Shown here: positions 8,894-51,180 of the stretch, one piece after another | How positions within the stretch are numbered: the first letter of the stretch is position 1 | How the letters are laid out: the number at the start of each line of letters is the position of its first letter | DNA from: a virus | Lineage: Duplodnaviria > Heunggongvirae > Uroviricota > Caudoviricetes | Reading direction: 5' to 3' (one strand) | Length of the DNA stretch: 53,254 nt | IMG/VR virus record: IMGVR_UViG_2563366998_000011 | Location: 1 to 53,254 of that record | Notes under the pieces: model-generated | What the model saw: the letters and a program-made list of their open reading frames with translations, nothing else | Database searches by the model: none | Told to the model about the DNA's origin: nothing | Program-made: the position numbers and the translations under genes

Positions 8894-8987
8894 GCCTGGG
8901 AAACACCAAAACGTAAACAGAAAACGTTATTTATTATTTAAATATCAATGGCATATAAAATATTTTAAAAAAGTATACAAAATGGAT

Positions 8988-16604: not shown

Positions 16605-16764
16605 TGTTTACAAAATGGCGTCATTGTGTGATGCGGATCACATAATGGCGCTTTATTGTTTGTTCGCATGTATCCGTTTTGTATACTTCAAACAAACAAA
16701 ATGCTCTTTAAAAATCCGGTAACGCTGAAATGCGTAAAAATCACCTGAAAAAGGAGAGAGCATT

Positions 16765-21883: not shown

Positions 21884-21997
21884 GGCGTTGGACAACCATA
21901 AATGTGATCTGTATCACAATGTATACGAAATGGCATTGTTTCGACAGTGCCATTTTGTTATATATAAGCCACGGAAAGACGGAGGGGAGGCAAGAAG

Positions 21998-23851: not shown

Positions 23852-24079
23852 ATGGAAGAAATGGTTTTACTGTCATCAATATGGCATCGGTTCGGAACTG
23901 AAAAAGGATACTCACCTGCTTGCTGGCTGGATAGTAAAAGCGGAAAGGAGTATCAAAACGAGTGCGAATTTAGAAGGGAGTGGCGAGGTGGTAAGGAAGT
24001 GCAAGGATATTTTGCACCAAAACACGTTGCCGCCAAATACAAAGAATGGCTTGTGCGTTTGCTTGGCCCTTATCGTTAA
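23852..24079 (+). CDS. Hypothetical protein
   Basis: 75 aa ORF flanked by 15-bp direct repeats TAAAGCCGTATTTGT. Confidence 0.4.
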   Translation: MEEMVLLSSIWHRFGTEKGYSPACWLDSKSGKEYQNECEFRREWRGGKEVQGYFAPKHVAAKYKEWLVRLLGPYR

Positions 24080-24087
24080 AGCCGTAT

Positions 24088-24116
24088 TTGTAGGGCGTAA
24101 ACAAACAGATTAAAAT
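24088..24116 (+). promoter_or_regulatory. Candidate late promoter (pR'-like)
   Basis: TTGTAG, 17-bp spacer, TAAAAT; upstream of tR'-like terminator and lysis cassette. Confidence 0.3.
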
Positions 24117-24144
24117 ATTCTCTAACAATGCGAAACTGTAACTA

Positions 24145-24172
24145 CCCGGCCCAGCGCCGGGTTTTTGCTTTG
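24145..24172 (+). terminator. tR'-like intrinsic terminator immediately upstream of the holin gene
   Basis: hairpin CCCGGC-CCAGC-GCCGGG followed by TTTTTGCTTTG; 15 nt before holin RBS. Confidence 0.55.
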
Positions 24173-26843: not shown

Positions 26844-27359
26844 ATGGCCCGCACTAAAAAGGCAAAAGCTGACGACAAAAAGCCAGCCGCAAAAAGGGTG
26901 GGCCGTCCGCATGGTTATACCGAAGAAAAGGCGTTAGAAATCTGTGAACTGGTGGCGGACGGTCAGAGCGTTAACAAAATTTCGAAGATGCCTGGTATGC
27001 CTACCCGTTCAACAATCCTGAAATGGTTTAGAGACGTGCCGGAATTCTCGGACATGTACATGCGCGCGAAGGAAATCGGCTTCGAGGTATTAGCTGATGA
27101 GATCCTCGATATAGCTGATGATGCTAAGAACGTTGATAAAGACCAACTACGCCGCCACCAATTAATGATTGAAACGCGTAAATGGTTATTGGCTAAGCTA
27201 CAACCGCGCAAATACGGCGAACGCGTCACACAGGAGATCGTCGGTAACAAGGAAGAAGCACCCGTCCAGGTAGAAGTAAATCAGACTACTGTCCTTGAGA
27301 TAATCGATAACCTGAATAAGGAGTACAATACTCATGGAGACTGCGACGACAAAGATTGA
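26844..27359 (+). CDS. Terminase small subunit
   Basis: 171 aa; basic N-terminus with HTH-like segment; GAGAGGTGA RBS; immediately precedes large terminase. Confidence 0.7.
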   Translation: MARTKKAKADDKKPAAKRVGRPHGYTEEKALEICELVADGQSVNKISKMPGMPTRSTILKWFRDVPEFSDMYMRAKEIGFEVLADEILDIADDAKNVDKDQLRRHQLMIETRKWLLAKLQPRKYGERVTQEIVGNKEEAPVQVEVNQTTVLEIIDNLNKEYNTHGDCDDKD

Positions 27360-28848
27360 CAGAGAGGTTCTAAGGGGGTTGTGTGTTAAAGGTTGTGCTC
27401 CCAAAGACATATCAGCACCTTTGTTTTTTAGTTCCTACTTTTATAAGCAACAGGTTGGCAAGGACTTTTTGGTTGGGCGTCATCACAGAATAATTGCCGA
27501 TACGCTACAACGAGTTATTAATGGTGAAATCACCAGGTTGATAATCAACATCCCACCGGGCTATGGCAAAACAATGATTGCCACAATTCACATGATGGCC
27601 CGCTGCCTCGCAATAGAACCCCGCACCAGATTCCTGCATGTATCGTATTCACACGGACTCGCCTTGCTTAATTCCTCAGAGACAAGAAACATAATCACGA
27701 TGCCGCAATATCAGGAATTGTGGCCTATGCAAATGCGCAACGATTCGAACGCGAAAAACCTGTGGTGGACCACTCAGGGTGGCGGCGTGTATGCGACGTC
27801 ATCGCTTGGACAGGTGACAGGGTTCCGCGCCGGGTACATGGAACCTGGGTTTAACGGCGCAATGATTATTGATGACCCCCTGAAACCAGCTGACGCTTAT
27901 TCTGATGTGGTGCGAAAGCAGGTTAATACCAATTACAACGACACGCTTTCTTCGCGCCTGGCTGTGCAAACAACGCCAGTGATCGTCATCATGCAGCGTA
28001 TCCACTACGATGATTTATCCGGCTACCTGTTACGTGGCGGTAGTGGTGAGAAATGGCATCACCTTTGCCTGCCAGTGAAGATCGACAACAGTCTTGACTA
28101 TTGGGATCTGTACCCGGAAAACAAATTCGCTATTCCTGTTCCTCACAACCTGCCGGATGGCTGGCTATGGTTGCATAAGCATAGTGATAAAGATGAATCA
28201 ACTCTTAAATCACATCGCCGAACATTCGAAGCTCAATATATGCAGTGTCCGCGCAAGTTCGATCAAGAGGGCGCATTGTGGACTGAAGCGATGATAACCG
28301 CCGCGCACATGATGCAGATAACGCGGGAGAAAATTCGCACGGTGATAGCCATCGACCCGGCGACAACATCATCTGATGAGTCAGACGAAACAGGGATTGT
28401 AGCCTGTTCCGCTTATGGTGGTGGCAAGAATGCTCAGTATTCAGTAGACGGTGACTACTCAGGCCGCATGTCACCTAATGACTGGGCGCAAGCAGCAATG
28501 AACGCCTACAACATCCATGAAGCTGACGCGATGGTTATCGAAACCAACCAGGGTGGTGATATGGCAGAGGCCACACTACGCAATGCAGGATTTAAGGGCC
28601 GCATTGTTAAGGTGCACGCAAGCAAGGGTAAATTTGCCCGCGCCGAACCAATATCTGCATTGTATGCACAGGGTAGGGTAGCCCACACTGGCAGCCTGTA
28701 CACGCTGGAAAATCAAATGATGGAATATGTGCCAGCTACCGCTAAAAAATCCCCTGACCGTATGGATGCGATGGTATGGGGGATCACTGAATTAAGCCAA
28801 CCACAGGCGATGGGGCTTATGTTACCTAAACGCCTGCGCGGATTTTAA
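27334..28848 (+). CDS. Terminase large subunit
   Basis: 504 aa; Walker A-like INIPPGYGKTMIA; acidic nuclease-type motifs downstream (IIDDP, AIDPA); overlaps small subunit. Confidence 0.8.
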   Translation: METATTKIDREVLRGLCVKGCAPKDISAPLFFSSYFYKQQVGKDFLVGRHHRIIADTLQRVINGEITRLIINIPPGYGKTMIATIHMMARCLAIEPRTRFLHVSYSHGLALLNSSETRNIITMPQYQELWPMQMRNDSNAKNLWWTTQGGGVYATSSLGQVTGFRAGYMEPGFNGAMIIDDPLKPADAYSDVVRKQVNTNYNDTLSSRLAVQTTPVIVIMQRIHYDDLSGYLLRGGSGEKWHHLCLPVKIDNSLDYWDLYPENKFAIPVPHNLPDGWLWLHKHSDKDESTLKSHRRTFEAQYMQCPRKFDQEGALWTEAMITAAHMMQITREKIRTVIAIDPATTSSDESDETGIVACSAYGGGKNAQYSVDGDYSGRMSPNDWAQAAMNAYNIHEADAMVIETNQGGDMAEATLRNAGFKGRIVKVHASKGKFARAEPISALYAQGRVAHTGSLYTLENQMMEYVPATAKKSPDRMDAMVWGITELSQPQAMGLMLPKRLRGF

Positions 28849-28975
28849 GTTATTGATTATTATCAACTTCGAAAAATTTTCGAAGATGAACAAGAATAAT
28901 TCTCAATTGGCTACATAAAATCTGTCTCACAATCCCCCACAAGTTTTTCTATTTTTCGCGTAGCAACGCGTAAAC

Positions 28976-30382
28976 ATGTATTCAGGAGTAAACATTATGC
29001 CATCCAATTTAGAATTGGCGGTTAATGCTGCCTTGTCACAACGCAAGGCGGCCTTTGCCCGCTATGCAGCCGCTAACCCATTCTCAATGGGTATTGATGC
29101 AAAACGTGATGCTGCGTGGAGTGAATACGGATTCAAAGAAGAAATCACCTATGACGATTTATACAAACTGTATCGTCGCGGTGGTATCGCTCACGGTGCT
29201 ATTGAGAAGATCATCACTACGTGCTGGCGCACCAGGCCAACGCTGATCGAAGGTACGGAAGACGAGAAAGCAGAAAAGGAAACGCCGTGGGAAAGAGAAA
29301 TCAAAAAACAATTTGATAATCGTTTCTGGCGCGTCATAGCTGAATGTGATCGCCGCCGCCTCATTGGTCGTTATGCTGGCCTGTTGATTCATGTCAGAGA
29401 TAACCAGCCGTGGGATCAGCCAGTAACAAAAGGCGTAGGCATTGCCAAATTTACTCCAGTATGGGCTGGTGCTCTGACGCCGAAGGACTTCGAAGAAAAC
29501 CCGGATAAAGAAAACTATGGCCTGCCTACATGGTGGGAATACAAGGAGCGCATCAATAGTAAGACCATAGCAAGAAAGATACATCCAGACCGGATATTCA
29601 TCTTCGGTGACTATTCTGATGATGCTATCGCTTTCCTTGAGCCGTCCTATAACGCTTTTGTATCGCTGGAGAAAGTGGAAGGAGGTAGCGGTGAATCCTT
29701 TCTAAAAAACGCCGCACGTCAACTGGCTATCTCGTTCGATAAAGAGATTGATTTCCGTTCCCTGGCTGCAACATACGGTTGCGACGTTACAGAGCTACGC
29801 GAAAAATTCAATGAAGCGGCAGAGGATATAAACAAAGGGAATGATGTGATGATGGCATTACAGGGAGCCACCGTTAGCCCGCTGGTCACTGCCGTAGCAG
29901 ATCCGTCCGCAACCTATGACGTCAACCTGCAAACCGCCGCCGCTGGTATCGACATTCCAACGCGTATCCTGGTTGGGAATCAGCAGGGCGAACGCGCATC
30001 AACTGAAGACCTCCGCTACTTCAATAATCGCTGTATGACCCGCCGTGAGGAAATAGGAGGCGAGCTTGAGGAACTATTCCGCAAGATGGCAGATCTCCGC
30101 CTTATCAGTATGCCAGTCGATGTATCAGTGTTATGGGATGACCTTAACGCCATGACAAAAGCCGAACTACTGGAAGCGGCACACAAGATGGCGCAAATCA
30201 ATCAGGCATGTCTCGCTACTGGTGAGGAAATATTTAGCGGCGATGAGATCCGCGAAGCTGCCGGATATGAAGGGCCAACGCAGGAAGTAGAAGTGGAAGA
30301 CGAGGACGATAAAGATGAAGATGAAGATGAAAGTAAAGAGAATAATCAAAAAGATTCCGCCGTCCGCGATAATGCCATCTAA
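28976..30382 (+). CDS. Portal protein (putative)
   Basis: 468 aa; position between terminase and MuF-like head protein; acidic C-terminal tail. Confidence 0.6.
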   Translation: MYSGVNIMPSNLELAVNAALSQRKAAFARYAAANPFSMGIDAKRDAAWSEYGFKEEITYDDLYKLYRRGGIAHGAIEKIITTCWRTRPTLIEGTEDEKAEKETPWEREIKKQFDNRFWRVIAECDRRRLIGRYAGLLIHVRDNQPWDQPVTKGVGIAKFTPVWAGALTPKDFEENPDKENYGLPTWWEYKERINSKTIARKIHPDRIFIFGDYSDDAIAFLEPSYNAFVSLEKVEGGSGESFLKNAARQLAISFDKEIDFRSLAATYGCDVTELREKFNEAAEDINKGNDVMMALQGATVSPLVTAVADPSATYDVNLQTAAAGIDIPTRILVGNQQGERASTEDLRYFNNRCMTRREEIGGELEELFRKMADLRLISMPVDVSVLWDDLNAMTKAELLEAAHKMAQINQACLATGEEIFSGDEIREAAGYEGPTQEVEVEDEDDKDEDEDESKENNQKDSAVRDNAI

Positions 30383-31268
30383 CACCGAAGACCCGACCAT
30401 GACAGGTAAGTTGCGGTCTGGAGCTATTAAGCGTTTTAAATCCTGCCTGAAGAAAATAGCCGATCCATATATCGCCATACTGGACAAAATACAATATAGC
30501 CTGGCTGTTAATAAGAAATATACCTTCCAGATTTACATGGATGAATTGCACGACATGCTGGAGGACGCCAGCGACATGATTGATGATATATTCGAGCTAA
30601 CCGACCCGGAAAGTTTTTGGTTCTGGCAGGAATACGTGAAGGTCGCGTATCTGCGAGGCACGGCACAGGAATACGCCAACCTTGCTAACCAGTCTGTCAC
30701 GTACTCAAGCGTTTATCCCGATGTATCTGCCGTACTATCAAGCACAACCTACCGCACGCGCCTTGCCCTGGTCCGTACCCGTGTATTTGAGGAAATGCGC
30801 GGGCTGACAGCACAGATCAAAAAGGATATGGCCCGCCGACTAACTGAAGGCATGGCCCGTGGCTTAAACCCACTTGAAATAGCGCGCACATTGCAGCAGG
30901 AAACGCAATTGCCGCTATACAGGTGCAAACGTATTGCTCGAACTGAAATATGCACAGCGTTGCGCACAGCGCGTATGGATGAGGCAGAAGCAGCGTCAGA
31001 AGAGCTTAATTTGCGCACCATGCAAATGCATATTTCGGCATTATCACCGACTACCAGGTTATCACACGCACAGCGGCACGGGAAAACATACACCATAGAA
31101 GAGCAGCGCGAATGGTGGAGCAGATCCCCTAATTCAATTAACTGCAAATGTAGCACGATTACCGTATTAGTTGACGAAGACGGTAATATATTAAACAAAC
31201 GAATATTAGATCGGGCGCAAGAAAACTATAAGGTTGCGCACGCTAAATATGGCGAAGATTGGGAGTAA
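30372..31268 (+). CDS. Minor head / head morphogenesis protein (Mu F / SPP1 gp7-like)
   Basis: ORF 30315..31268, likely ATG at 30372 overlapping portal stop; position and size typical of MuF-like proteins. Confidence 0.55.
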   Translation: MPSNTEDPTMTGKLRSGAIKRFKSCLKKIADPYIAILDKIQYSLAVNKKYTFQIYMDELHDMLEDASDMIDDIFELTDPESFWFWQEYVKVAYLRGTAQEYANLANQSVTYSSVYPDVSAVLSSTTYRTRLALVRTRVFEEMRGLTAQIKKDMARRLTEGMARGLNPLEIARTLQQETQLPLYRCKRIARTEICTALRTARMDEAEAASEELNLRTMQMHISALSPTTRLSHAQRHGKTYTIEEQREWWSRSPNSINCKCSTITVLVDEDGNILNKRILDRAQENYKVAHAKYGEDWE

Positions 31269-31273
31269 AAATC

Positions 31274-32563
31274 GTGAGTAAAGAACTGATTCAGGTTAAT
31301 ACCAAATTAACCGCTAATACCATCCGCCGGGAAACATATAACGGGCGTGAACACATTGTAGTCCCGTCGTATACGTTGCCCTTCAATATCGTTATGAATC
31401 GTGAATATTACCCGGAAGCCGAAATCATTGCTAATTATCAATCTCTGGAAGGCACGCTCGCACCGCTGGGCCATCCTACGGTTGACGGCGAATTTGTTTC
31501 CGCATTTAGCCCTGAAGGTCTGAATATTGGCTTTTGTGGCGCATGGAACAGGAATGTAGAATTACGCGGGAACCGTGTTTATGTGGAAAAGTGGGTGGAT
31601 GTTGAAACCGCCAGCCATTCAGAACAAGGCCGCGAATTATTAAGCCGACTGGAAGCACTGGAAAAAGGCGAAAGCAAATATCCGATCTGGTCATCTGTTG
31701 CCGTATATCGTCAGCGTATGCCAGCTACTGAAGAAATGAAAGCCCAGGGCGCTGACAGCGTTGTCAAAATCATGTCGATTGACCATGACGCCATCTTACT
31801 GCATGAACCGCCAGCCGCATCGCCTGAACAGGGCGTTGGCCTGATGGTTAACACTGACCAGGCGAAACCGTTAATGGCGGTGGCAATGAAAGAAAACAGT
31901 TACCGTACGCTTGAGAAACAATTAACCGACGCGGCGCGTGAATTATTTCCTGATGCCGATTACGTGTATGTTGTGGACTTCACTGATAAAGAAGTGACGA
32001 TTGCCACTAATACCGAAAGTGCTCAAGTTTGCGCATATGAAAAACAGGCTGATAAAATTATTCTCAATAATGGCGAGCTTGCAACCAATGAGGAAAGTAA
32101 ATCATGGTTCGCTCAGTTCGCTGAACACCTGTCTAATCTTTTCTCCCTGAATGAAAAAATTAAGGCCAATAAATCGGAGGACGATCCCATGCCTTTGACC
32201 AAAGAAGAACGCGCCGAACTGGTAAAAGAAATTAACGAAGGCTTATCCGCCAATATCGCTAATGCAGTAGCAGAGGCATTAAAACCAGTACAGGCAAGCG
32301 TTGAAGAATTACAGACCAACCAAGAAGAATTACAGACCAACCAGAAAGCAATTAAAGAAGAAATTGCAGCAAACGCAAATAAAGAAGTAGCAGAAAAACG
32401 CGCCGCAGTAGCAAAAGTTCACGGAGAAATTGTTGCTAACGCATTAAGCGGTGAAGCATTAGAGGCAATGTTTAAATCCCTGGGTAAAGCAACTCCGCTA
32501 GCCGCCAACACAGCAAGTGAAGACAAAAAAGGTGAAGTCCCTGACTTTAACACTTATTTCTAA
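31274..32563 (+). CDS. Scaffolding protein (putative)
   Basis: ORF 31259..32563, probable GTG start at 31274 after GGGAG; C-terminal half coiled-coil-like (EELQTNQEELQTNQKAIKEEI); precedes capsid genes. Confidence 0.5.
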   Translation: MSKELIQVNTKLTANTIRRETYNGREHIVVPSYTLPFNIVMNREYYPEAEIIANYQSLEGTLAPLGHPTVDGEFVSAFSPEGLNIGFCGAWNRNVELRGNRVYVEKWVDVETASHSEQGRELLSRLEALEKGESKYPIWSSVAVYRQRMPATEEMKAQGADSVVKIMSIDHDAILLHEPPAASPEQGVGLMVNTDQAKPLMAVAMKENSYRTLEKQLTDAARELFPDADYVYVVDFTDKEVTIATNTESAQVCAYEKQADKIILNNGELATNEESKSWFAQFAEHLSNLFSLNEKIKANKSEDDPMPLTKEERAELVKEINEGLSANIANAVAEALKPVQASVEELQTNQEELQTNQKAIKEEIAANANKEVAEKRAAVAKVHGEIVANALSGEALEAMFKSLGKATPLAANTASEDKKGEVPDFNTYF

Positions 32564-32577
32564 CTGGAGGGAATACA

Positions 32578-33006
32578 ATGTCTCGTTTTCGTCGTGTAAA
32601 TATTGATGGTAAATCCATTACCGAAACCTACACTGCTAAGGTCGCAGTAAAACCAGGTGAACTGGTAAAACTGGACGGAGGTAAGTTTGCAAAAGCAACC
32701 AGTGCTGATGTCGGTGCAGCTCAGTTGTACATCGTCAACCCGGCATTCCACGAAGGCAAAACCATTACTGATGCAATCGCTGCAAATGAAACTGTTGTTG
32801 CTGATTATGTGGAACAGGGCCGAGAGTTTGCTCTCCTTGTTCCTGCAGCCGCTTATGTTAAGGGTGCAGCTATTGCTCTCGCAGCTGACGGGGTGAAACT
32901 GTTTGTTGCGCCAAGTGAACAGGCAGCGCCAGATCCGATCATCGCATACTGCCAGGAAGACGTAACCCTGGAAGCGGAAGATTTTATCCGCGTTCGCGTG
33001 GCTTAA
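32578..33006 (+). CDS. Head decoration / structural protein (putative)
   Basis: 142 aa; strong GGAGG RBS; immediately upstream of major capsid gene. Confidence 0.5.
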   Translation: MSRFRRVNIDGKSITETYTAKVAVKPGELVKLDGGKFAKATSADVGAAQLYIVNPAFHEGKTITDAIAANETVVADYVEQGREFALLVPAAAYVKGAAIALAADGVKLFVAPSEQAAPDPIIAYCQEDVTLEAEDFIRVRVA

Positions 33007-33023
33007 TTTAAAAGGGGAATAAC

Positions 33024-34088
33024 ATGTACTTTACTAAAGAAAACCTTGTCGCCAACTCCCGGATGCAGAGCCATTGGAAAGAACTGTGGGCGCAACGCAA
33101 TATCTTCAACGAGCAGCACAACGCCATGATTGCAGCAAATCAGGCAAATATGACCGCTGAAATGTTGACCTGTAACGCCGTCGGCGGCTTCGCAAAAGAA
33201 TTCTGGAAAGAAATCGATAACCAAATCATTGAACTGAACACCGAAGAGGTCGGTATCGAGATCGTAAACGACCTGATGGGTGTACAGACCGTATTACCAA
33301 TCGGTAAAACGCTGAAAATGTACAACGTATCCGGCGACATTAACGATGAGGTCGTAATGTCTATGGATGGTCAAGCGCCACACAGCTTTGATCACACCGA
33401 ATACGGCAGCGATGGCGACCCGATCCCGATGTTCGCAGCGGGTTACGGTGTTAACTGGCGTTTAGCTCAGGGCTTAAATACTGTAGGTATCGACCTTGCA
33501 TTAGACAGCCAGCGCCTTAAACTGAAAAAATTCAACAAAGCACGCGTCCAGTTCTACCTGAATGGTAACGATCGCATCGTGGTTGATGATCATAAAGCAA
33601 TGGGTATTAAAAACCACAAAAACACCCAGCAACTTAAACTGAAAACTGTTGCTAAAATCGACCTTACCACTGCGGCTTTCGATAAGATTATTGAATTCTT
33701 TACCACTGGTGAGTTCGGGAAACTGGCCCGCGCCAACTTCGTAGCTAAATACGATGTAATGTGGGTATCGCCAGAAATCATGGCTAACCTGGCACGCCCA
33801 CACATCGTTAATGGCGCAATTGTTGGTAGTGTGCTGGATGTTATCAAGCCGTTTGTCCCGGTTGGTGATATTCGCCAGACCTATGCGCTGACTGGCAACG
33901 AATTTATCGCTTATCAGCGTAGCCGCAGCGTCATCACCCCGCTGATTGGCATGACCACTGGCGTAGTTCCGTTACCGCGCATGATGCCGACTGATAACTA
34001 CAACTTCCGCATCATGTCCGCTGAGGGTCTGCAAATCACCCGTGACATGGAAGGTCGTTCAGGAGTGGTCTACGGCAGCAATACCTGA
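33024..34088 (+). CDS. Major capsid protein (putative)
   Basis: 354 aa; strong RBS; followed by strong terminator as typical for coat genes. Confidence 0.65.
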   Translation: MYFTKENLVANSRMQSHWKELWAQRNIFNEQHNAMIAANQANMTAEMLTCNAVGGFAKEFWKEIDNQIIELNTEEVGIEIVNDLMGVQTVLPIGKTLKMYNVSGDINDEVVMSMDGQAPHSFDHTEYGSDGDPIPMFAAGYGVNWRLAQGLNTVGIDLALDSQRLKLKKFNKARVQFYLNGNDRIVVDDHKAMGIKNHKNTQQLKLKTVAKIDLTTAAFDKIIEFFTTGEFGKLARANFVAKYDVMWVSPEIMANLARPHIVNGAIVGSVLDVIKPFVPVGDIRQTYALTGNEFIAYQRSRSVITPLIGMTTGVVPLPRMMPTDNYNFRIMSAEGLQITRDMEGRSGVVYGSNT

Positions 34089-34105
34089 TTGATATGTTTC
34101 TGTAG

Positions 34106-34136
34106 CTCCCCGGCGCAATGCCGGGGATTTTTTTTG
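34106..34136 (+). terminator. Intrinsic terminator after major capsid gene
   Basis: hairpin CCCCGGCGCAATGCCGGGG followed by T8. Confidence 0.7.
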
Positions 34137-34153
34137 TATGTGGAGAAAACAAA

Positions 34154-34540
34154 ATGGTTACCACACAACAGGCGCGGGAATATCTCGAAAGCCAGGGGAT
34201 TGAAATACCAGACGTGGTTTTATCTTTGCTGGTGGAGCAGGCAAATAGCGTTAATGAATGCCTTGATGCCAATTATCCGTCCTCCACTGCAACATTGATT
34301 CAGCTTTATCTCATTGGCCTGTTAGGACTCAGCCAGGCTGATAAATACGTTTCCTCGCAGACTGGTCCGAACGGTGCAAGCCAGTCTTACCGCTATGTCG
34401 ATTTTAATAAGCGATGGAAGGCGGCCTATTCGTTGCTTTACTCACTGGACAAACACCATTGTACAGCCGAACTAATTCCACCAGATCCAGAAAACACCGC
34501 GCACGCCGGGCTGTGGATTGGTAAGAGCAGGAGGATGTGA
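34154..34540 (+). CDS. Head completion / head-tail connector protein (putative)
   Basis: ORF 34118..34540, ATG at 34154 after GGAG; position. Confidence 0.45.
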   Translation: MVTTQQAREYLESQGIEIPDVVLSLLVEQANSVNECLDANYPSSTATLIQLYLIGLLGLSQADKYVSSQTGPNGASQSYRYVDFNKRWKAAYSLLYSLDKHHCTAELIPPDPENTAHAGLWIGKSRRM

Positions 34541-34728
34541 CAATGTGGAACGACCTGACATTACCAAATCCAGTATTGCCGAAACCATTTACCCGCGTGT
34601 GGGTTAAAACGGATAGCGGACGCCAGGTGGCGGCCTACCTCAATGATGCTGGCTTATGGGTAATTCTTTGCCCGCGCGTGGCGAAAACTCATCCAAAGGT
34701 CATTAGCTGGAGTTACGGCTATGAGTAA
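34537..34728 (+). CDS. Hypothetical structural protein
   Basis: 63 aa ORF, coupled. Confidence 0.4.
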   Translation: MTMWNDLTLPNPVLPKPFTRVWVKTDSGRQVAAYLNDAGLWVILCPRVAKTHPKVISWSYGYE

Positions 34729-35089
34729 GATTGCGCGATTCAGTTACAAGGCATTAGCCACCATCTACCCCGTAACGCATGACGACTGGACAAACGCCGA
34801 CGTATACGGCGCACCATACCTGATTAACTGCGCATGGGAGCGCACCGACGGCACTGCAACAGACACAAACGGTAATGAGGTTAGCAATACAATAACCGTA
34901 TTTACCGAACTGCTTCATAATATGCAGCCAGTGCAGCGCCCGAAAAACGGCTGGATGATTGCCACTGGCGACACCACTAATATTTCCGACCCGCTGGTGG
35001 CTGGGGCCAACGTTATTACCGGGATCGTTGAATGGGATATGAGCATGTTTAACGACACGCCGGATTATAAGATCGTGACAGGGGGTTAA
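34721..35089 (+). CDS. Head-tail adaptor (putative)
   Basis: 122 aa ORF; position. Confidence 0.4.
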   Translation: MSKIARFSYKALATIYPVTHDDWTNADVYGAPYLINCAWERTDGTATDTNGNEVSNTITVFTELLHNMQPVQRPKNGWMIATGDTTNISDPLVAGANVITGIVEWDMSMFNDTPDYKIVTGG

Positions 35090-35091
35090 TC

Positions 35092-35556
35092 ATGCCTATC
35101 AAGGGGGTTAAACGCGTCCGTGAGAGATTAAAGCAGGAACTAAAGGAAATCACCGATAAAAAGACGCACGAAGTTTTATGGCGCGTCGGTATGCTGGCTG
35201 GTGGCTTCGCGGCAAACATGACACCAGTTGATACGGGTTTTTTAATTAACAGCCAATTTCAATATATAGGTAACACGGCGGACGGTATGCAATTACGCCT
35301 GGGATATACGGCCCGCTACGCTGAATGGGTGCACAATATGCCGGGTACATTAAAAGGCCAGCCGCGCGAAGATTTCGGCAAAACGAATAACCTTTCAGAT
35401 TTCGGACCGAAACAGGTAATTAGTTTTGGTGGTGGTACTGGAAAGGGTAATTATTGGGATCCAAATGCGGAGCCTGGATTCTTGCGTAAGGCATTCGAAG
35501 ATCCTAACCACGCCGATGATATTTATAAAGAAATTGTAGAAGGTTACAAAGTATGA
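35092..35556 (+). CDS. Head-tail joining protein (HK97 gp10-like, putative)
   Basis: 154 aa; position and size. Confidence 0.45.
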   Translation: MPIKGVKRVRERLKQELKEITDKKTHEVLWRVGMLAGGFAANMTPVDTGFLINSQFQYIGNTADGMQLRLGYTARYAEWVHNMPGTLKGQPREDFGKTNNLSDFGPKQVISFGGGTGKGNYWDPNAEPGFLRKAFEDPNHADDIYKEIVEGYKV

Positions 35557-35939
35557 AACGCAGCGAAGTTTACGACGAAATAAGGGATTGGATTCAATCC
35601 CACGGATACGATGAAGGCTATATTTTGCAGGCCCGTTTCTGGAATGAGCGAAGTAATTCGAATAATGACAGATACATCGTGATCCAGCAAAACGGCGGCG
35701 CGGCTGGTGAGGAAGCAATAACCCGTGATTATTTCCGCATCCTGGTTATTTCAGCGCGTAATGATGCAAATATCAGTGAGGTGGAAGACCTTGCCGATGC
35801 CATCCGTCAAAGTATGTTAACAGAATATAAAACTGATAAAATTACACACATGAAGCCAGTTGGCGCTATTCCTGCAATACAGACAAGAGAAGGGCGCTTT
35901 ATTTTTACCGTAGCCTTTCAAACCATCATATCAAGATAA
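35553..35939 (+). CDS. Tail completion protein (putative)
   Basis: 128 aa; position before major tail gene. Confidence 0.4.
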   Translation: MKRSEVYDEIRDWIQSHGYDEGYILQARFWNERSNSNNDRYIVIQQNGGAAGEEAITRDYFRILVISARNDANISEVEDLADAIRQSMLTEYKTDKITHMKPVGAIPAIQTREGRFIFTVAFQTIISR

Positions 35940-35952
35940 GAGGTAAATTAAC

Positions 35953-36429
35953 ATGTCTCAGACTTGCGAAAAAGGCACGTTTACAGGCCGTGACGTTGCT
36001 GTATTCTTCGCTATCGCTTGTCCAAATGCGAAGCCGGAAGCTGAAGCGTACAAAGCGTTAGGCATGATGCGTGGTAAAACACTTTCCGTTGAATGGGAAA
36101 CCGCTGACGCCACCGCCGATAAATCAGCCGATTACACGAAAGAATCAATGGTTACTTACAAATCCGTTTCTTTCTCCGGCGACGGTGTGTCCCGCACTGA
36201 AGAAATCCATAATCAGAAAGCGCTGAAACGCCACGTAATTACGCCAGGTGAAACCACCGGATCACAACCTTATGTATGGCTGAAGATCGTTTCTCCTGTA
36301 GACGTAACTGAAGGCCCATTCCTTTGCACTTCCTTTAAAGAAGAAGATCCGCATGATGATGTTTCCACCTGGTCTATTGAGTGCGAAAGCGCTGGCAAGG
36401 TAACGGTAGGCGACGTTCCGCCAGCATAA
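35953..36429 (+). CDS. Major tail protein (putative)
   Basis: 158 aa; position before chaperone and tape measure. Confidence 0.5.
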   Translation: MSQTCEKGTFTGRDVAVFFAIACPNAKPEAEAYKALGMMRGKTLSVEWETADATADKSADYTKESMVTYKSVSFSGDGVSRTEEIHNQKALKRHVITPGETTGSQPYVWLKIVSPVDVTEGPFLCTSFKEEDPHDDVSTWSIECESAGKVTVGDVPPA

Positions 36430-36475
36430 CAGCCAATATTAACAATCGGGGCCATTTGGCCCCTTTTCTTTTAAG

Positions 36476-37183
36476 GTGAATACTATGATCCATGTTCGTA
36501 CAGGACAATTTGCTGCCGTGGTGAACGGTAAGCGCTATGAGTTTAATCCTTGCTTTGCTGCGATGGCTAAAATCGGCAACGATAGTGAGCTTGTCGAATA
36601 TTTCGCACTTATCCACGGCGGCAAATATCCATCACGATTGCCAGCAGATCCAGACCTACGCAATCGCATTCTGGCGCGGTGTTATGGTGAAATAGTTCAG
36701 ACATCAATGCACATCCTGAAATGTTGCTCAGACGACGAAATAGGCCCGTTATTGGGCGAATGCTGGTTTACTCCTTCGGGTAAGTTAAAGTTAAAGCCCG
36801 GATTAATGCCGATCGAGGATATCATCACGCTTGCGCAGCACTGCATGTACCACGGTCTTATTGGTGATGGCCCGGAAGAAGAGTCCGGGGAAATTCCGGA
36901 AGGGGAATATAAGCCGACTTTTAACGTCCTTGAATTCGTCTATTCTGCCGTTGCTCACCTGGGCTTGTCAGAATCGGAAGCATGGAATATGACAATGACC
37001 GGATATAGGGCCGCTGTACGCGCTAAAACGCCGCCAGACGAAAGAAACGAGAAAAGCAAGCCAAACATTCACATAAATAAACGTGCTTATGACGAGCAAA
37101 TGGAGGCCGCTAAAAAGGCACTAGAAAGAATGAAAAATCGTGAGCAAGAAAAGCCCGGTAGATCCGGGCGTTTTGCTAATTGA
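36476..37183 (+). CDS. Tail assembly chaperone (putative)
   Basis: 235 aa; position upstream of tape measure. Confidence 0.45.
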   Translation: MNTMIHVRTGQFAAVVNGKRYEFNPCFAAMAKIGNDSELVEYFALIHGGKYPSRLPADPDLRNRILARCYGEIVQTSMHILKCCSDDEIGPLLGECWFTPSGKLKLKPGLMPIEDIITLAQHCMYHGLIGDGPEEESGEIPEGEYKPTFNVLEFVYSAVAHLGLSESEAWNMTMTGYRAAVRAKTPPDERNEKSKPNIHINKRAYDEQMEAAKKALERMKNREQEKPGRSGRFAN

Positions 37184-37550
37184 AATCTTTAATTGCTGTA
37201 CCTGGTGAACTGTGTGTGATTGTATTGTATACAGACTTTGCCTTACTGCGATCTTTCCATTCTTTTAGGATGCAGTTATCAAACTTTGCGATAACCCTTG
37301 AAGGGGATAATTCTTCAACATCCATGTAAGTAAATCCTATCGTGCTGGTTACTGAATACCATACGTGATAACTATAATTACCGTCATGCTCGATTCTTTG
37401 TGGTTCCCCCATTATTTTATTCACTTGCTCACAAGTCATTCCAACTTGCAAATTTTTATCAGCTAACTTAACGAAATCAGTTGATCTTGCGCACCCTGTA
37501 AGAGCTAAAGCCATAACACCAATGAGAACCGCTTTGATTATTTTTTTCAT
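37176..37550 (-). CDS. Lipoprotein (antisense moron in tail cluster)
   Basis: 124 aa; signal peptide and lipobox LTGC; opposite strand to tail genes. Confidence 0.7.
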   Translation of the reverse strand: MKKIIKAVLIGVMALALTGCARSTDFVKLADKNLQVGMTCEQVNKIMGEPQRIEHDGNYSYHVWYSVTSTIGFTYMDVEELSPSRVIAKFDNCILKEWKDRSKAKSVYNTITHSSPGTAIKDFN

Positions 37551-37560
37551 GATTTACCCC

Positions 37561-38220
37561 TTAATTCCAGTTGCAAGCGTTTTTCACTTTGTCGATGTGG
37601 TTATAAAGACCATCAATGTTAAACACTGCTTTCTCAATGTCGCCAGCTTCCGGCACTACTTCAATGATGAATTGTTTTTCGTTAACCAGTTTTTTAATCA
37701 TTGGGATGGCTTTTTTGCCGTCCCATAATCCAAGAGCTTTATAATTAGTTGACCGCCACCACTCAGTAGCTACAGCTTTGTGAACGCCGATCCGGTAGTT
37801 AATATAAGTAGTGTCCCCGGCGTCAGTTACATGGTGTGACCATGCTACGAACATTTTTGTTTTATTACCCTGGCAAGCGATTGTTAATACCGGTTTATTC
37901 TTATCCTGTGCCTTCAGTGTCGGGAAAGCATCAAGACTTCCGCTGAATTGTTCTGCTTTCACAAAAAGGAATACGTTTTTTGCGTCCTGCATATCATCTT
38001 TTCTTTCAACTACAAGCCACTGTTTACCAGCATTTTCTTTTTCTAACTGTGCATCGTATGCGGCTTGTTTTGCTTGTTGTTCTGCAAGCCATTTAGCATT
38101 TTTCTCTGCTAATGCTTGTTGCTCTTGATTGGTCACTATAGGCGCTTTTTCATTATCCTCATTGCAACCAACCAGACCCAATACCGCCGCAATCATTGCC
38201 ACTTTTGCTAACCGTTTCAT
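37561..38220 (-). CDS. Lipoprotein (antisense moron in tail cluster)
   Basis: 219 aa; signal peptide and lipobox LVGC. Confidence 0.7.
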   Translation of the reverse strand: MKRLAKVAMIAAVLGLVGCNEDNEKAPIVTNQEQQALAEKNAKWLAEQQAKQAAYDAQLEKENAGKQWLVVERKDDMQDAKNVFLFVKAEQFSGSLDAFPTLKAQDKNKPVLTIACQGNKTKMFVAWSHHVTDAGDTTYINYRIGVHKAVATEWWRSTNYKALGLWDGKKAIPMIKKLVNEKQFIIEVVPEAGDIEKAVFNIDGLYNHIDKVKNACNWN

Positions 38221-38347
38221 AACCCACCACGCTAACTTGATTTACTGACCATTCCCTTTAGCTTCCTTATACAAAATGGAGTCGTTGAAGTAAAGCCATT
38301 TTGTATAAAATAGATACACAGATCACATTTTTGCATGAGGTTAAATC

Positions 38348-40690
38348 ATGGCTACCAGTGTAGGTACAATTTATTACGAAGTTGATGCGAAAACTGGTCA
38401 ACTTCTCGTTGCACAACGACAGGCAGACCAGGCCTTTGATCGTATAGAGCGCGGCGCAAAACAGGCTGACCGCCAGGTAAACACCCTGAAAACATCCATC
38501 AAGGCACTGACCAGGGTTATCCATCTGCTAATTGCTGCGGAGGCTGTGCGCCAATTTATGGATATGGCGGAGCAAGCAAAAATGCTTCGCGTAAAAATCA
38601 AAATGCTTACGGGCGATGCGGAGTCCGCCGGACGGGTTTTCGACGGCCTGAAAGCAATATCCAGGGAGACGGGGCAGAGCCTGAAAGATACTGGCGAATT
38701 ATGGCAAGGCCTGGCTATCTCACTAAAAAACACCTCCGCTACGGAAGGGCAATTGCTTAACCTGGTTGGCACTATTCAGAAAATGGGTGCATTAGGCGGC
38801 GCGTCAGCGGAACAGATGTCTAACTCAATGCGTCAATTCCGTCAGTCTATCGACGGCGGTGTTCTTCGTGCCGAAGAATTTAACAGCCTGCTTGAAAATA
38901 CGCCGACCATCGTACAAACAATGGCCCGCCATATGGGATTATCAATGGGCCAGTTCCGCGCCGAAATGCTGGACGGCAAGATCACGGCTGAAAGGATGGT
39001 TAACGCAATACAGGCGGCTACGCAGGAAACAAACGATAAGTTTGCTCAGTTGCCGCGCACATCCGGCATGGCTATCAATGAGCTTAAAGTAGAAATTATG
39101 GGCCTTGTTGAGCAGTTGGATGATCTTTTTGGCGTGTCAGATGGCGTTGTTTCAGCTATCGACTTGATCACGAAAGGCGTTAAAGGGCTTGGCGATGGCG
39201 CTAAATTCGCTAAAACCTGCTTCGACACACTCAAAACGGCTGGTAGCGAATTTATCGACATGTTTGATGATGTGGCTGTTAAGGCTGGAGAGGTGGCAGA
39301 GAAGATCATCGCAATGGTGACGCCAATCAAGGCGCTAATGGATGGCTATAAATGGATGAAGGAGGTAGTAGGAGAGCAAACCGACGAATATAACAGCAAC
39401 TACGAGAAGAAATACGGGAAGACCGTTGGCAAGGTCATGCAACTACAGGATGATCTGACCGCAGCAATCCAGGCTACAGAAGAAGCAAGGAAAAATGAAC
39501 AGAATGCTGCCAATGACGGAGCGATTACCGGATTCGACAAGCCAGTAGACAAGCCGAAAAAACAGAAAAAAGAGAAGAAATCGGAAGCTGATCGGCTTGG
39601 TGACAAAGGTATAAGCGTTTCTGATCAGTACAACAAAGACGCCGCCGCCATGCGCAAAGCGTTGGAGAACGGCAAGGCCATTGATGCTGCATTTGCCCAG
39701 GGTAAAATCACGCTCCTTGAGTACCGCGCCGCGCAAAAAGGGATCGGCAAGGAACTGAAAGAAGAATTAGCACAAATTCCGGTAGATGAATTGCGTGATA
39801 AATGGTCACAAATAGTAAGCCCGATGGATCAGCTAAAAGGCGAAGTTGACCCCATCCAGCAGGCGCAAAATGAATGGGCCATCCGTAAGCAAATGCTTAT
39901 AGACCTGGGCGCTACTGAAGCGCAACAGAAACAGGAATTGTTAGCCTATGAGCAACAGATCCGCGATCTGAAATGGGAACAATGGCAGGCGCAAAGCGAC
40001 ACAAACGGCCTTATCGGTGATTGTGTTAATGGCCTTAAAGGCGGAATGAGTAATGCGCTTGTTGGCCTGTTAAACGGCACTCAATCATTGAGTGATGTTT
40101 TTGCTAACTTAGGAAGCAATATACTCGGCAATATCGGTAACAGACTCTCAGACATAGCTGCAAACTGGATAGCAGATCAGATCATGATGGAGACACAAAG
40201 CAAGGCCACGCAAACAAGTACAACAGCAAGCGCGGTAGCAGCTCAGGGAAGCATTGCTGCGGCGGCGGCCCCAGCAGCGGCGGCAACTGCGGCGTCAACT
40301 GGCGGTAGCTGGGCGGCGGCTGGTTCGGCGGCGCTCACTGCGATCATGTCGCTGGCTACGTCAATTTTCGGCGGCGGTCGCTTTAATGGTGGTAGCGTCA
40401 TTGGTGGTAATATGTACCGCGTAGGGGAACACAACAGGCCGGAGCTATTCCAGACATCTAACGGCAATCAATATATGATCCCTGGCGAGAACGGCAGAGT
40501 TATTCCGGGCCGTGATATTGGCGGCGGTGGCGGTATTAGTATGCCTGTCAGTATCAGCATTCAGACCACGAACGGATTCAGCGACGAAGACAGCCGCAGA
40601 CTTGAATTAACAATGGAACGTGTAGCCATGAAAATGATAACAAGGGAATCTCAAAGACCAGGCGGAATGTTGCAACCTCGCCGCAAATAA
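38348..40690 (+). CDS. H: Tail tape measure protein (lambda H-like)
   Basis: 780 aa; alpha-helical with Gly/Ala-rich C-terminal region; precedes M-L-K-I-J. Confidence 0.85.
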   Translation: MATSVGTIYYEVDAKTGQLLVAQRQADQAFDRIERGAKQADRQVNTLKTSIKALTRVIHLLIAAEAVRQFMDMAEQAKMLRVKIKMLTGDAESAGRVFDGLKAISRETGQSLKDTGELWQGLAISLKNTSATEGQLLNLVGTIQKMGALGGASAEQMSNSMRQFRQSIDGGVLRAEEFNSLLENTPTIVQTMARHMGLSMGQFRAEMLDGKITAERMVNAIQAATQETNDKFAQLPRTSGMAINELKVEIMGLVEQLDDLFGVSDGVVSAIDLITKGVKGLGDGAKFAKTCFDTLKTAGSEFIDMFDDVAVKAGEVAEKIIAMVTPIKALMDGYKWMKEVVGEQTDEYNSNYEKKYGKTVGKVMQLQDDLTAAIQATEEARKNEQNAANDGAITGFDKPVDKPKKQKKEKKSEADRLGDKGISVSDQYNKDAAAMRKALENGKAIDAAFAQGKITLLEYRAAQKGIGKELKEELAQIPVDELRDKWSQIVSPMDQLKGEVDPIQQAQNEWAIRKQMLIDLGATEAQQKQELLAYEQQIRDLKWEQWQAQSDTNGLIGDCVNGLKGGMSNALVGLLNGTQSLSDVFANLGSNILGNIGNRLSDIAANWIADQIMMETQSKATQTSTTASAVAAQGSIAAAAAPAAAATAASTGGSWAAAGSAALTAIMSLATSIFGGGRFNGGSVIGGNMYRVGEHNRPELFQTSNGNQYMIPGENGRVIPGRDIGGGGGISMPVSISIQTTNGFSDEDSRRLELTMERVAMKMITRESQRPGGMLQPRRK

Positions 40691-41400
40691 ACTAAACCCC
40701 GGTGCAATGCCGGGGTTATTTTTGTGCACAGAAAACCCCCAGCTAGGCTGGGGGTTCCGGAAAGCTTTCAGCTTTAAGCCAGTTATTAAAACCCCTTTTG
40801 ATTTGTTAAAACACCTTGCGGTCTGGCAACTGCAAGTGTCAAACAAGAAATCAAAAGGGGGTCCCAATGGGGAACGAAAAGAGCTTAGCGCACACCCGAT
40901 GGAACTGTAAATATCACATAGTTTTTGCGCCAAAATACCGAAGACAGGTGTTCTACAGAGAGAAGCGTAGAGCAATAGGCAGTATTTTGAGAAAGCTGTG
41001 TGAGTGGAAAAGTGTACGGATTCTGGAAGCTGAATGCTGTGCAGATCATATCCATATGCTTGTGGAGATCCCGCCCAAAATGAGCGTATCCGGGTTTATG
41101 GGATATCTGAAAGGGAAAAGCAGTCTGATGCTTTACGAGCAGTTTGGTGATTTGAAATTCAAATACAGGAACAGGGAGTTCTGGTGCAGAGGGTACTACG
41201 TCGATACAGTGGGTAAGAACACGGCGAAGATACAGGATTACATAAAGCACCAGCTTGAAGAGGATAAAATGGGAGAGCAGTTATCGATTCCCTATCCGGG
41301 CAGCCCGTTTACGGGCCGTAAGTAACGAAGTTGGATGCAAATGTCAGATCGTGTGCGCCTGTTAGGGCGCGGCTGGTAAGAGAGCCTTATAGGCGCATTT
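40691..41400 (+). mobile_element. IS200 insertion sequence (boundaries approximate)
   Basis: contains IS200-type tnpA; left-end hairpins at 40697-40715 and 40733-40756; about 0.7 kb; inserted between tape measure and gene M. Confidence 0.65.
40867..41325 (+). CDS. tnpA: IS200/IS605-family transposase TnpA
   Basis: ORF 40816..41325, likely start MGNEKSLAHTRWNCKYHIVF; HxH motif (HIHMLVEIPP) and catalytic Tyr region (GYYVDTVG); matches Salmonella IS200 TnpA as recalled. Confidence 0.9.
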   Translation: MGNEKSLAHTRWNCKYHIVFAPKYRRQVFYREKRRAIGSILRKLCEWKSVRILEAECCADHIHMLVEIPPKMSVSGFMGYLKGKSSLMLYEQFGDLKFKYRNREFWCRGYYVDTVGKNTAKIQDYIKHQLEEDKMGEQLSIPYPGSPFTGRK

Positions 41401-41425
41401 GAAAAACCTCCGGCTATGCCGGAGG
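41399..41425 (-). terminator. Minus-strand intrinsic terminator
   Basis: hairpin CCTCCGGCATAGCCGGAGG followed by TTTTTC on minus strand. Confidence 0.5.
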
Positions 41426-41488
41426 ATATTTATTTCGTATTTATAAACGACCATTCCGCGCGATATATCCCCTTTCGAATATCTCGAC

Positions 41489-41743
41489 TCACTTATGAGT
41501 GCCTTTCACGCCACATAACTTGTTATAGGCATGGTGCTCAACAATTAACCAAACCTTCAAATCTTCGCTAAACAGCCTCCAATCAAGATTGATATCCATT
41601 TTGTATCCGTAACCGTCGCGTAACTTTTTGGGGTAAACTTCTTTTCTCAGAAAGGCTTTAAGTAATTCCTTACCTTTCTTGATGATCCGGTCCTGTGCGT
41701 TTTTCTGTGCTTTCAGATTTCTGTCAATCGCTACCAGTTTCAT
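41489..41743 (-). CDS. Hypothetical protein, possible RelE/YafQ-like toxin
   Basis: 84 aa; basic; C-terminal ...VKGTHK loosely resembles the YafQ/RelE C-terminus; second gene of a two-gene antisense operon. Confidence 0.3.
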   Translation of the reverse strand: MKLVAIDRNLKAQKNAQDRIIKKGKELLKAFLRKEVYPKKLRDGYGYKMDINLDWRLFSEDLKVWLIVEHHAYNKLCGVKGTHK

Positions 41744-41760
41744 AACTCACCCCATCATCC

Positions 41761-41916
41761 TTAGTTAAGTGCCTTCAGGAAGAAGTCCCGGTATTCATCT
41801 TCTTTCGCATTCATCATGAATTGACCGTATTTGAATGCGTCGTCGAAACCCTTAACGATTGCTATTTCCACTTGTTCGAATGCGTTATTTAGCATTACTA
41901 CTACATAGCGTTTCAT
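41761..41916 (-). CDS. Small hypothetical protein (51 aa), possible antitoxin partner
   Basis: MKRYVVVMLNNAFEQ...; strong GAAGGAGG RBS; 18 nt upstream of the 84-aa gene. Confidence 0.35.
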   Translation of the reverse strand: MKRYVVVMLNNAFEQVEIAIVKGFDDAFKYGQFMMNAKEDEYRDFFLKALN

Positions 41917-42083
41917 TTTGGGCCTCCTTCGTTGGTACTACTTTCTTCTTGCTTTCTATATACATCTTGTTGCGTGCTATGTGAAGCCATTTTGTAAACT
42001 AGCTATAATCATTGTGACAATGATCTTATTTTTCGCGTAGAAGCGCGTAAAGATATATACAAAATGTAACTTGTGGGGGGTTT

Positions 42084-42638: not shown

Positions 42639-42668
42639 GACCCCGCGCGAAGCGGGGTTATTTTTATT
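42639..42668 (+). terminator. Intrinsic terminator within tail cluster
   Basis: hairpin CCCCGC-GCGAA-GCGGGG followed by TTATTTTTATT. Confidence 0.55.
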
Positions 42669-43565: not shown

Positions 43566-43694
43566 AACGCACCTCCGCGCCATTTTGTTAACTATGCTTC
43601 CGTTTGAGTAAAATATACATATTGTAAAAACCGCGATCAATCCATTTTGGTATGATTTAGCGTGACGCAGATCACAGAATGACAAGGTGAGAAA

Positions 43695-50983: not shown

Positions 50984-51180
50984 TGTATTCACCTTACTGT
51001 TTGTTTTACTGTCATTTGTTGTTCGTGATGATCCACCCATCCGATGAGCAAATCACCGCAGAAGCTATCATTTCGTATGTTGATATAGATCAAAAAATAC
51101 ATTATGTATAAGCCCAAAGTGTAACACAGATTACAAAATGGTAGAATTGTTTAGTTAATTAACAAAACGGAGTTATTGCG

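Follow-up and report, generated by a model that had tools for sequence, protein, structure and literature searches.

The window, here the whole 53,254-nucleotide (nt) stretch of the virus record IMGVR_UViG_2563366998_000011, contained two near-identical copies of a 23-nt element, one in the leader of the portal gene and one in the leader of the minor tail gene M. The element is genuine. It is a cis element specific to this phage family, strongly conserved there and not annotated to date. It most likely acts as a control element at the level of the mRNA rather than as a promoter. The window belonged to a coliphage of the mEpimmI group (mEp021-like), with approximately 87% DNA identity to mEp021, mEp010/013/044/515/554 and MagusPhagus. 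The mEpimmI coliphages are non-lambdoid and Nus-dependent, and have three nut sites, a Q-like protein and an N-like antiterminator, Gp17 (PMC11893012).

Copies, occurrence and natural variation of the element

Copy 1 (TTTTTCGCGTAGCAACGCGTAAA; 28952-28974, plus strand) lay in the intergenic leader between terL and the portal gene, with its hairpin core CGCGU-AGCA-ACGCG at 28957-28970. Copy 2 (TTTTTCGCGTAGAAGCGCGTAAA; 42029-42051, plus strand) lay in the leader of M, with its hairpin core CGCGU-AGAA-GCGCG at 42034-42047. The two copies differed only at element positions 13 (C/A) and 15 (A/G). An earlier reading of the letters without database searches (the sequence-only reading) had reported this identity at 21 of 23 positions correctly, and had placed copy 1 at 28953-28975, one base too far to the right. 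With up to 3 mismatches allowed, there were exactly 2 matches to the element in the window and none in any of 100 shuffles. A third copy was not found in the window, even with 7 substitutions allowed or with a sequence-free criterion (T-run, 4-bp GC stem, loop of 4-7 nt and A-rich tail). An unguided repeat search recovered the same pair as a 35-nt direct repeat with 86% identity, and none of 300 shuffles scored as well as the local alignment of the two sites. By repeat search and local alignment, the full stretch of similarity ran over 28950-28984 (TATTTTTCGCG...AAACATGTATTCA) on the side of copy 1 and over 42027-42061 (TATTTTTCGCG...AAAGATATATACA) on the side of copy 2, both on the plus strand.

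An exact-pattern scan of IMG/VR matched at least 80 loci, and each of the matches listed stood in one of two contexts, upstream of the portal gene or upstream of M. Because a pattern-based sample is biased by the pattern, loci were resampled by protein homology (32 loci via the major capsid protein, 30 family loci via M and 49 loci via the portal protein). In all homology-sampled loci that spanned a site, the element occupied that site on the plus strand, and no further copy occurred in stretches of up to 21 kb. Further copies in related phages, which the sequence-only reading had named as a check, were thereby found, with both copies present in every family member sampled. The spacing from the element to the portal ATG was exactly 22 nt in 49/49 sampled loci, and the spacing to the M ATG was 32-34 nt in 30/30 family loci. 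The element was absent upstream of the portal gene in the next-closest phages SPN3UB, ES18 and CobraSix (55-60% portal identity), and upstream of M in the outgroup loci (0/50; 67-71% M identity).

The GTDB species genomes gave 27 matches, all in unrelated taxa and none enterobacterial, which was about the number expected by chance (approximately 17, estimated from 18 specified bases and 1.2e12 positions). The M-site region was present in 35 of 5,426 complete E. coli genomes, in all cases chromosomal and with no annotated feature under the match. Host chromosomal copies pointing to a host regulon were found neither in the GTDB species genomes nor in the complete E. coli genomes, and a search of genome contigs with the major capsid protein found no relatives. 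No Rfam family matched the element at gathering thresholds, the sole match in the window being STnc490. Promoters or late-region RNA elements were not described in the mEpimmI genome paper (PMC11893012), and no prior description of the element was found in the literature and databases searched.

Pairwise diversity (pi) in the homology-based samples was 0.012 for the portal copy and 0.029 for the whole 57-nt portal leader, and 0.22-0.24 at third codon positions of the adjoining terL and portal genes. The M copy had a pi of 0.039, compared with 0.18-0.19 in its intergenic flanks and 0.31 at third positions of M, and was one of several conserved islands amid the variable sequence of the M intergenic region. 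Diversity of the element was approximately 5-20-fold lower than that of the flanks or nearby third codon positions at both sites, in about 50 genomes.

The stem was invariant in 49/49 portal loci. Among 21 distinct variants, changes were concentrated at loop positions 11, 13, 14 and 15, giving the natural loops AGCA, AGAA, AGAG, AGCU, AGCG and GGAA, plus one shortened loop. The closing pair varied between U-A, U·G and, occasionally, U·U. Only two stem substitutions occurred, C6>T (L172/L177) and C16>T (L117/L176), which give U·G and G·U pairs that are paired only in the plus-strand RNA. One lineage (L173/L174) had a 1-nt loop deletion (CGCG-TAGAT-CGCG) that left both stem arms intact and brought the half-sites closer together (spacing 5 instead of 6). 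The exchange of linked AGCAA and AGAAG variants between sites in a few genomes indicates that gene conversion between the copies occasionally takes place.

The proposed leader hairpin and competing readings

The element is an imperfect palindrome with three sets of pairs: C6-G9 with C16-G19, T10 with position 15 and, beyond a conserved T5/T20 mismatch, T2-T4 with A21-A23. The predicted RNA fold had an energy of -6.1 kcal/mol for copy 1 and -7.7 kcal/mol for copy 2, and 8/8 natural variants tested folded into the hairpin (-4.6 to -8.1 kcal/mol). Both copies were on the coding strand, and sense-strand pairing was kept in the natural variants, as in a structured leader RNA: standard pairs made up 98.2% of pair cells in the 21 distinct variants, the changes being C-G to U·G, G-C to G·U, and U-A to or from U·G. 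A hairpin in the sense-strand RNA was favoured, not proven, over a double-stranded DNA operator, because the change in half-site spacing from 6 to 5 bp and the asymmetric conservation ill fit a dimeric protein on DNA.

A sigma-70 promoter was not found by consensus scan at either copy on either strand, and the candidates read manually were not conserved (TTTACG-17-TAGAAA/TGAGAA on the minus strand; AAAGAT without a -35 on the plus strand). With no promoter within the 23-mer, the element would be a leader and not a promoter. The internal late promoter proposed in the sequence-only reading was therefore not borne out for the 23-mer itself, which had no acceptable -35/-10 on either strand, and was probably right for the adjacent sequence at M, with its conserved TATAAT. 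The probable sigma-70 promoter for M consisted of GTGAAG (41981-41986), a 17-nt spacer and TATAAT (42004-42009) on the plus strand, and was missed by the consensus scan because its -35 matches at 3/6 positions only. The TATAAT was 19 nt upstream of the M copy, and TATAAT and TGAA were invariant in 27 distinct family sequences. The M transcript was predicted to start near 42016, which would place the element at about +13 to +35. An internal sigma-70 promoter is thus probably present at M, with the element as its transcribed leader. At the portal copy, CACAAT was 18 nt upstream and its final T was changed to C (CACAAC) in 6/27 sequences. The portal -35 region was not conserved: depending on the genome, it was occupied by the end of terL or by a 69-bp insert. 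No promoter was supported at the portal copy.

The reading to which most weight was given, tentatively, is that of a stem-loop in the leader RNA, flanked by an RNase E-type A|UUUUU tract, that would mark and protect the 5' end of the downstream cistrons. The processing site listed among the possibilities of the sequence-only reading is compatible with the observations and plausible in this sense. The element would form a cis-acting stem-loop in the sense mRNA leaders of portal and M, with a variable tetraloop on a 5-bp CGCGU/RCGCG stem; beyond a conserved U·U mismatch, UUU/AAA pairs would lengthen the stem. Late mRNA would be cut by an RNase E-type endonuclease within the purine-UUUUU tract just 5' of the stem, as would transcripts from the TATAAT promoter of M itself, and the UUU/AAA extension would keep the newly cut 5' end in a helix. 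The downstream cistrons would be protected and their ribosome-binding sites insulated from the upstream sequence, which for the portal copy would be terminase mRNA and for the M copy approximately 1.3 kb without a plus-strand phage gene (an IS200-family insertion and the antisense of a moron cluster). The two copies would be paralogous leader cassettes kept alike by selection plus occasional gene conversion. This model would explain why both copies face in the sense direction at a set distance from the start codon, why the loop tolerates change, why the T-run and the TAAA flank are conserved, and why the element heads two cistron blocks that have variable sequence, or no phage gene, upstream. 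The RNase E core motif is RN|WUU (PMC5222698). In nearly all copies the stem was directly preceded by a purine (A, except for G in one sequence) and then UUUUU (UUUU in a single lineage), a match of low information.

Several results weighed against a processing and protection hairpin. The RNase E motif is short and common, and at portal, which comes straight after terL, it is not obvious why a new 5' end would be required. The folding energy of this small hairpin was just 1.4-2.7 standard deviations better than that of shuffles. There were 0 compensatory double changes and the shuffle controls equalled the observed value, in a family whose divergence is too low to expect many, so that covariation gave no statistical support for the stem. 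The stem sequence itself was invariant, beyond mere pairing, which points to a sequence-specific recognition that a pure stability hairpin would not need. Mapped transcript ends for mEpimmI phages were not found in the literature searched.

A 5' end held within a helix protects the ompA, papA and T4 gene 32 mRNAs, and intercistronic processing combined with 5' stem-loop stabilisers is a familiar arrangement. The element resembled the papBA, ompA and T4 gene 32 leaders in having a short stable leader hairpin after an A/U-rich single-stranded tract, and in standing at the head of a block of cistrons within a long operon. It differed from them in its shorter hairpin, its invariant stem sequence and the use of the same 23-mer twice per genome.

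If confirmed, the leader stem-loop would be the first cis-regulatory signal assigned within the late (structural) region of mEpimmI coliphages, which are common in the human gut and whose late region is unusually split by reverse-oriented morons and terminators. It would also show how a phage frees portal and tail-tip expression from upstream insertions, and would offer a compact, portable leader cassette for phage engineering. No current concept would be overturned, leader hairpins and intercistronic processing sites being well known.

A translational operator, in which the hairpin would be bound in trans by a phage or host RNA-binding protein that sets or times portal and M translation, is rather unlikely, though it is the alternative that fared best. 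The sequence of the stem and flanks was invariant, and not the pairing alone, which suggests sequence-specific recognition; the position was fixed at 22 and 32-34 nt before the start codons; and the same element fronts two genes for low-copy assembly initiators, portal and M. Conversely, the loop varied freely, whereas known hairpin-binding regulators usually read the loop, the hairpin leaves the ribosome-binding site uncovered, and no candidate RNA-binding protein was identified. Translational operator hairpins are represented by the MS2 coat/replicase operator, the T4 RegA and gp43 operators and the Mu Com/mom operator. The element shared with these a small conserved hairpin near the start and multiple targets, and differed from them in lying off the ribosome-binding site and the start codon, in its variable loop and in being without a known cognate protein.

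It is improbable that both hairpins are operators of a phage-specific post-transcriptional regulon, in which one phage protein would couple portal and M synthesis. Candidates for such a protein would be one of the many small phage proteins without an assignment, or the arginine-rich N-like Gp17 acting beyond its three nut sites. Were this regulon real, head and tail assembly would be coordinated at the RNA level.

A double-stranded DNA operator is more doubtful than a translational operator. A dimeric regulator would then bind the half-sites of the imperfect palindrome TTTTCGCG-N6-CGCGTAAA, which are separated by one helical turn. At M, bound at about +13 to +35, it would stop transcription that starts at the TATAAT promoter, and its action upstream of portal would be similar. 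The palindromic geometry, with conserved arms and a variable centre, agreed with this, as did the place of the M copy just downstream of the invariant TATAAT and the near-equal distance of CACAAT from the portal copy (18 vs 19 nt). The fixed half-site spacing and symmetric conservation expected of a dimeric DNA operator were not observed, however. Half-site spacing in L173/L174 was 5 and not 6 bp (CGCG-N5-CGCG), although that lineage may carry a dead site. Conservation was asymmetric, T10, A11 and G12 being fixed while positions 13-15 varied, and T5 was unlike the symmetry-related A. Both stem substitutions were of the type that preserves RNA pairing, the putative CI-type operators of the immunity region looked different (CTTGC-N6-GCAAG), there were no host chromosomal copies, and the portal CACAAT lost its final T in 6/27 sequences. 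The NagC/Mlc (ROK) operator is a 23-bp quasi-palindrome with invariant TT/AA at +/-5,6 from its centre (PMC4288165), and was excluded, since the element has CG/CG where TT/AA is required. The element was like the lacO-type roadblock operators in being an imperfect palindrome of approximately 22 bp with half-sites 10 bp apart downstream of the M -10, and unlike them in its natural spacing variant, its asymmetric conservation and the lack of a convincing promoter at the portal copy. Such roadblocks are an example of promoter-proximal palindromic operators.

Also improbable is a part in initiation or early elongation, as a promoter element, a sigma-dependent pause or a Q-loading module of a duplicated internal late promoter cassette. 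In its favour, the M copy follows a conserved -10, and positions 2 and 6 of the 3' flank AAA(G/C)(A/G)T were always A and T, respectively, as in a -10-like pause element. The phage also encodes a Q protein (PF03589) and carries a late promoter of lambda type (TTGTAG-17-TAAAAT), whose spacer likewise contained the 8-mer GCGTAAAC. Both the scans and the manual reading, however, gave no usable -35/-10 in or around the 23-mer on either strand, and there was no conserved promoter upstream of the portal copy. Kinship to the Q-dependent late promoter region (24088-24167) was rejected: its similarity to either site was not significant (p 0.1-0.26), and a 7-8-mer match such as GCGTAAAC is expected by chance in 53 kb.

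The lambda-style late promoter was located at 24088-24116, with a -10-like AACAAT at about +1 to +6 (compare AACGAT in lambda) and a terminator at 24144-24162. The open reading frame of the Q protein was at 18144-18866. The 12-mer AGCCGTATTTGT of the late promoter module was repeated at approximately 23829, flanking an open reading frame of 75 amino acids (23852-24079) that was not present in mEp021.

That the element is an extra nut-like site, serving the N-like antiterminator Gp17 as a boxB-type target or acting as some other processivity signal in the late region, is very improbable. It had the small GC stem, purine-rich loop, U closing and following A-run of the boxB of nutL and nutR2, in a Nus-dependent family with three known nut sites (PMC11893012). 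There was, however, no boxA (GCTCTTTAA) upstream, the sites were far from the early promoters, and the loop was not GNRA-like and varied freely, whereas an A-rich boxB loop was reported as conserved (PMC11893012). Compared with the boxB of mEp021 nutL, nutR1 and nutR2 (PMC11893012), the element was alike in the GC stem of 4-5 bp, the purine-rich loop, the A-rich 3' flank and the sense RNA, and unlike in lacking boxA, in a loop that was neither GNRA-like nor conserved, and in its place in late-gene leaders and not downstream of early promoters. A lambda-type nut site was likewise rejected, the upstream TTTTTCTA / TCTCA being without boxA while genuine family nut sites show the boxA GCTCTTTAAAAA. 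The family nutL, nutR1 and nutR2 were located by eye in mEp021 and in the window, with GNRA-like boxB loops. A 39-nt inverted repeat (8015-8053 / 16701-16739; 85% complementary) corresponded to boxA plus boxB of nutL and nutR2, in positions that agree with those given for mEp021 (PMC11893012).

Just as remote is a functionless footprint of an old duplication or recombination, which the sequence-only reading had entertained: insertion hot spots occurred at both sites (the 69-bp insert at portal; IS200, HNH and toxin-antitoxin morons before M) and the swapping of linked variants between sites implies ectopic recombination, but the flanks diverged while the element stayed fixed, and its low diversity at both sites, indicating strong purifying selection across the family, rules out a neutral footprint.

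Other classes were rejected as follows. For an intrinsic terminator, the stem was followed by UAAAG/UAAAC (plus strand) or AAAAA (minus strand) with no U-tract, and the scan called none. A leader peptide was rejected, as the ATG just after the hairpin was not conserved at M. An IS200/RAYT-type hairpin was rejected with the element present in relatives without the insertion sequence. A tyrosine-recombinase core site (arms plus a 6-bp centre) seems unlikely, with the copies direct across 13 kb of essential genes and their centres unlike. By inspection against the RfaH ops consensus (GGCGGTAGnnTG), only GTAG was shared (TCGCGTAGMARC; 4/9 specified positions). None of the consensus sequences of LexA, Fur, TyrR, PurR, CpxR, OmpR, the marbox and sigma-32/E/28/54 fitted, in comparisons that serve as leads only.

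Leaders and gene starts of portal and M

The terL open reading frame (27334-28848) was upstream of copy 1. The portal protein matched Pfam PF06381 and the minor tail protein M matched Pfam PF05939. The portal ribosome-binding site AGGAG was at 28984-28988 and the probable start at ATG 28997-28999 (plus strand). This start is the most likely one, and the first in-frame ATG at 28976, right after the element, is less likely, because AGGAG lies 8 nt upstream of ATG 28997 and the same start is annotated in MagusPhagus. The ribosome-binding site of M was a G-run at 42075-42080 and its start was ATG 42084 (to 42086), on the plus strand. The sequence-only reading had set both copies just upstream of structural gene starts, and was right for M at 42084; for portal it had used 28976. 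In mEp021 (L001 1907-1945, vs window 28976-29010), the usual portal start ATGCCATCC was replaced by ATATTGCGT, and the GenBank portal start is therefore the ATG directly after the hairpin, without a ribosome-binding site. Either the start codon has truly shifted in mEp021, or the sequence or its annotation is at fault.

An insert of approximately 69 bp (28849-28917) lay between the terL stop and the conserved portal leader, and was present in 13/49 portal loci. It held two small palindromes, TTGATTATTATCAA and CTTCGAAAAATTTTCGAAG.

A C/G-rich partner in inverted arrangement had been described for the two copies, and both CCCCCACAAGT (28934-28944) and its reverse complement (42069-42079) were indeed present. 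The match extended to 14/15 positions, between the C-rich stretch AATCCCCCACAAGTT upstream of copy 1 (28931-28945, plus strand) and AACTTGTGGGGGGTT downstream of copy 2 (42067-42081, plus strand), which includes the M ribosome-binding site; about 1/300 shuffles were as good. As a maintained pairing the partner did not hold up, since the G-run is the Shine-Dalgarno sequence of M and the arms varied independently among genomes. The C-rich stretch was variable in relatives (CACCCGCAAGT, CTACCCACAAG, CCCTCACGAAT and others), with no covariation with the M side, and a looser likeness between CCCCC-A-AAGTT ahead of portal and AACTTRTRGGGGG ahead of M ran through the whole family. The extended leader folded no better than shuffles (z -0.5 and -1.4). 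Given the independent arms and the shuffle-like folds, long-range pairing was rejected for the C-rich stretch, whether to the G-rich stretch or to the portal ribosome-binding site. The C/G-rich match was taken to be mostly coincidence; at most, it would be left over from a common ancestor of both leaders.

Regulatory motifs and neighbouring genes

A CRP-like sequence, TGTGA-N6-TCTTA (42013-42028, plus strand), was located between the TATAAT and the M copy. In mEp021-type relatives it read TGTGACGAAGTTCTCA, with 9/10 positions matching the consensus, and the family form TGTGA-N6-TCTYA was partly conserved. The CRP consensus at up to 1 mismatch had 5 matches in the window vs 1.6 expected. CRP-type sites at 16627-16642, 21903-21918 and 43661-43676 (two perfect, TGTGA-N6-TCACA, and one with 9/10) were in regulatory intergenic regions. 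In addition, CCATTTTG-(-10-like)-...ACAGATCACA was common to the sequences preceding L and the tape-measure gene. This suggests that cyclic AMP-CRP may act on moron or restart promoters.

The 14-mer CCATTTTGTWWACT had 22 occurrences at up to 2 mismatches vs 2.4 expected, a number reached by 0/100 shuffles. One copy (41987-42000, plus strand) filled the spacer of the M promoter. Other plus-strand copies included those at 16674-16687, 38296-38309 and 43580-43593, and minus-strand copies included those at 3997-4010, 8129-8142, 8972-8985, 16605-16618, 38266-38279 and 51128-51141. Many of the closest matches were intergenic, beside promoter-like sequences. Sites occurred in the immunity region, upstream of the early rightward promoter and on both sides of nutR2, and also in the plus-strand restart regions that precede M, L and the tape-measure gene, with orthologous copies in mEp021. 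The motif could serve as an operator dispersed through the genome or as a promoter element shared among sites.

The late region of the window was broken up, with the tape-measure gene followed by a terminator and then by an IS200-family insertion. Three near-identical terminator hairpins (CCCCGGYGCAATGCCGGGG plus a T-run) were found, after the late promoter (24144-24170), after the major capsid gene (34108-34134) and after the tape-measure gene (40697-40723), and the late region is thus partitioned by near-identical terminators. The IS200/IS605-family insertion (40716-41435) was between the tape-measure gene and the moron cluster. It contained an open reading frame for a Y1 transposase of 169 amino acids (40816-41325), was 99% identical to copies in other coliphages, was not present in mEp021 or mEp554, and carried the Rfam small RNA STnc490 (40734-40857).

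Beside M, a minus-strand two-gene moron (41489-41916) comprised an open reading frame of 51 amino acids and then a ParE-like toxin of 84 amino acids (PF24732, E 9e-12). A putative divergent promoter, TTCACA-17-TATATA (41957-41985, minus strand), was recognised from conserved blocks and directed toward this moron, which is probably a toxin-antitoxin pair driven by it. After the moron, the order was M and an open reading frame of 65 amino acids (plus strand), a bidirectional terminator (42639-42659), another minus-strand cluster and then L. Within the 1692-amino-acid tail fibre/J-like gene (45620-50698), a periodic repeat of 108 nt (36 codons) occurred in at least 8 copies with 61-100% identity (48631-49594).

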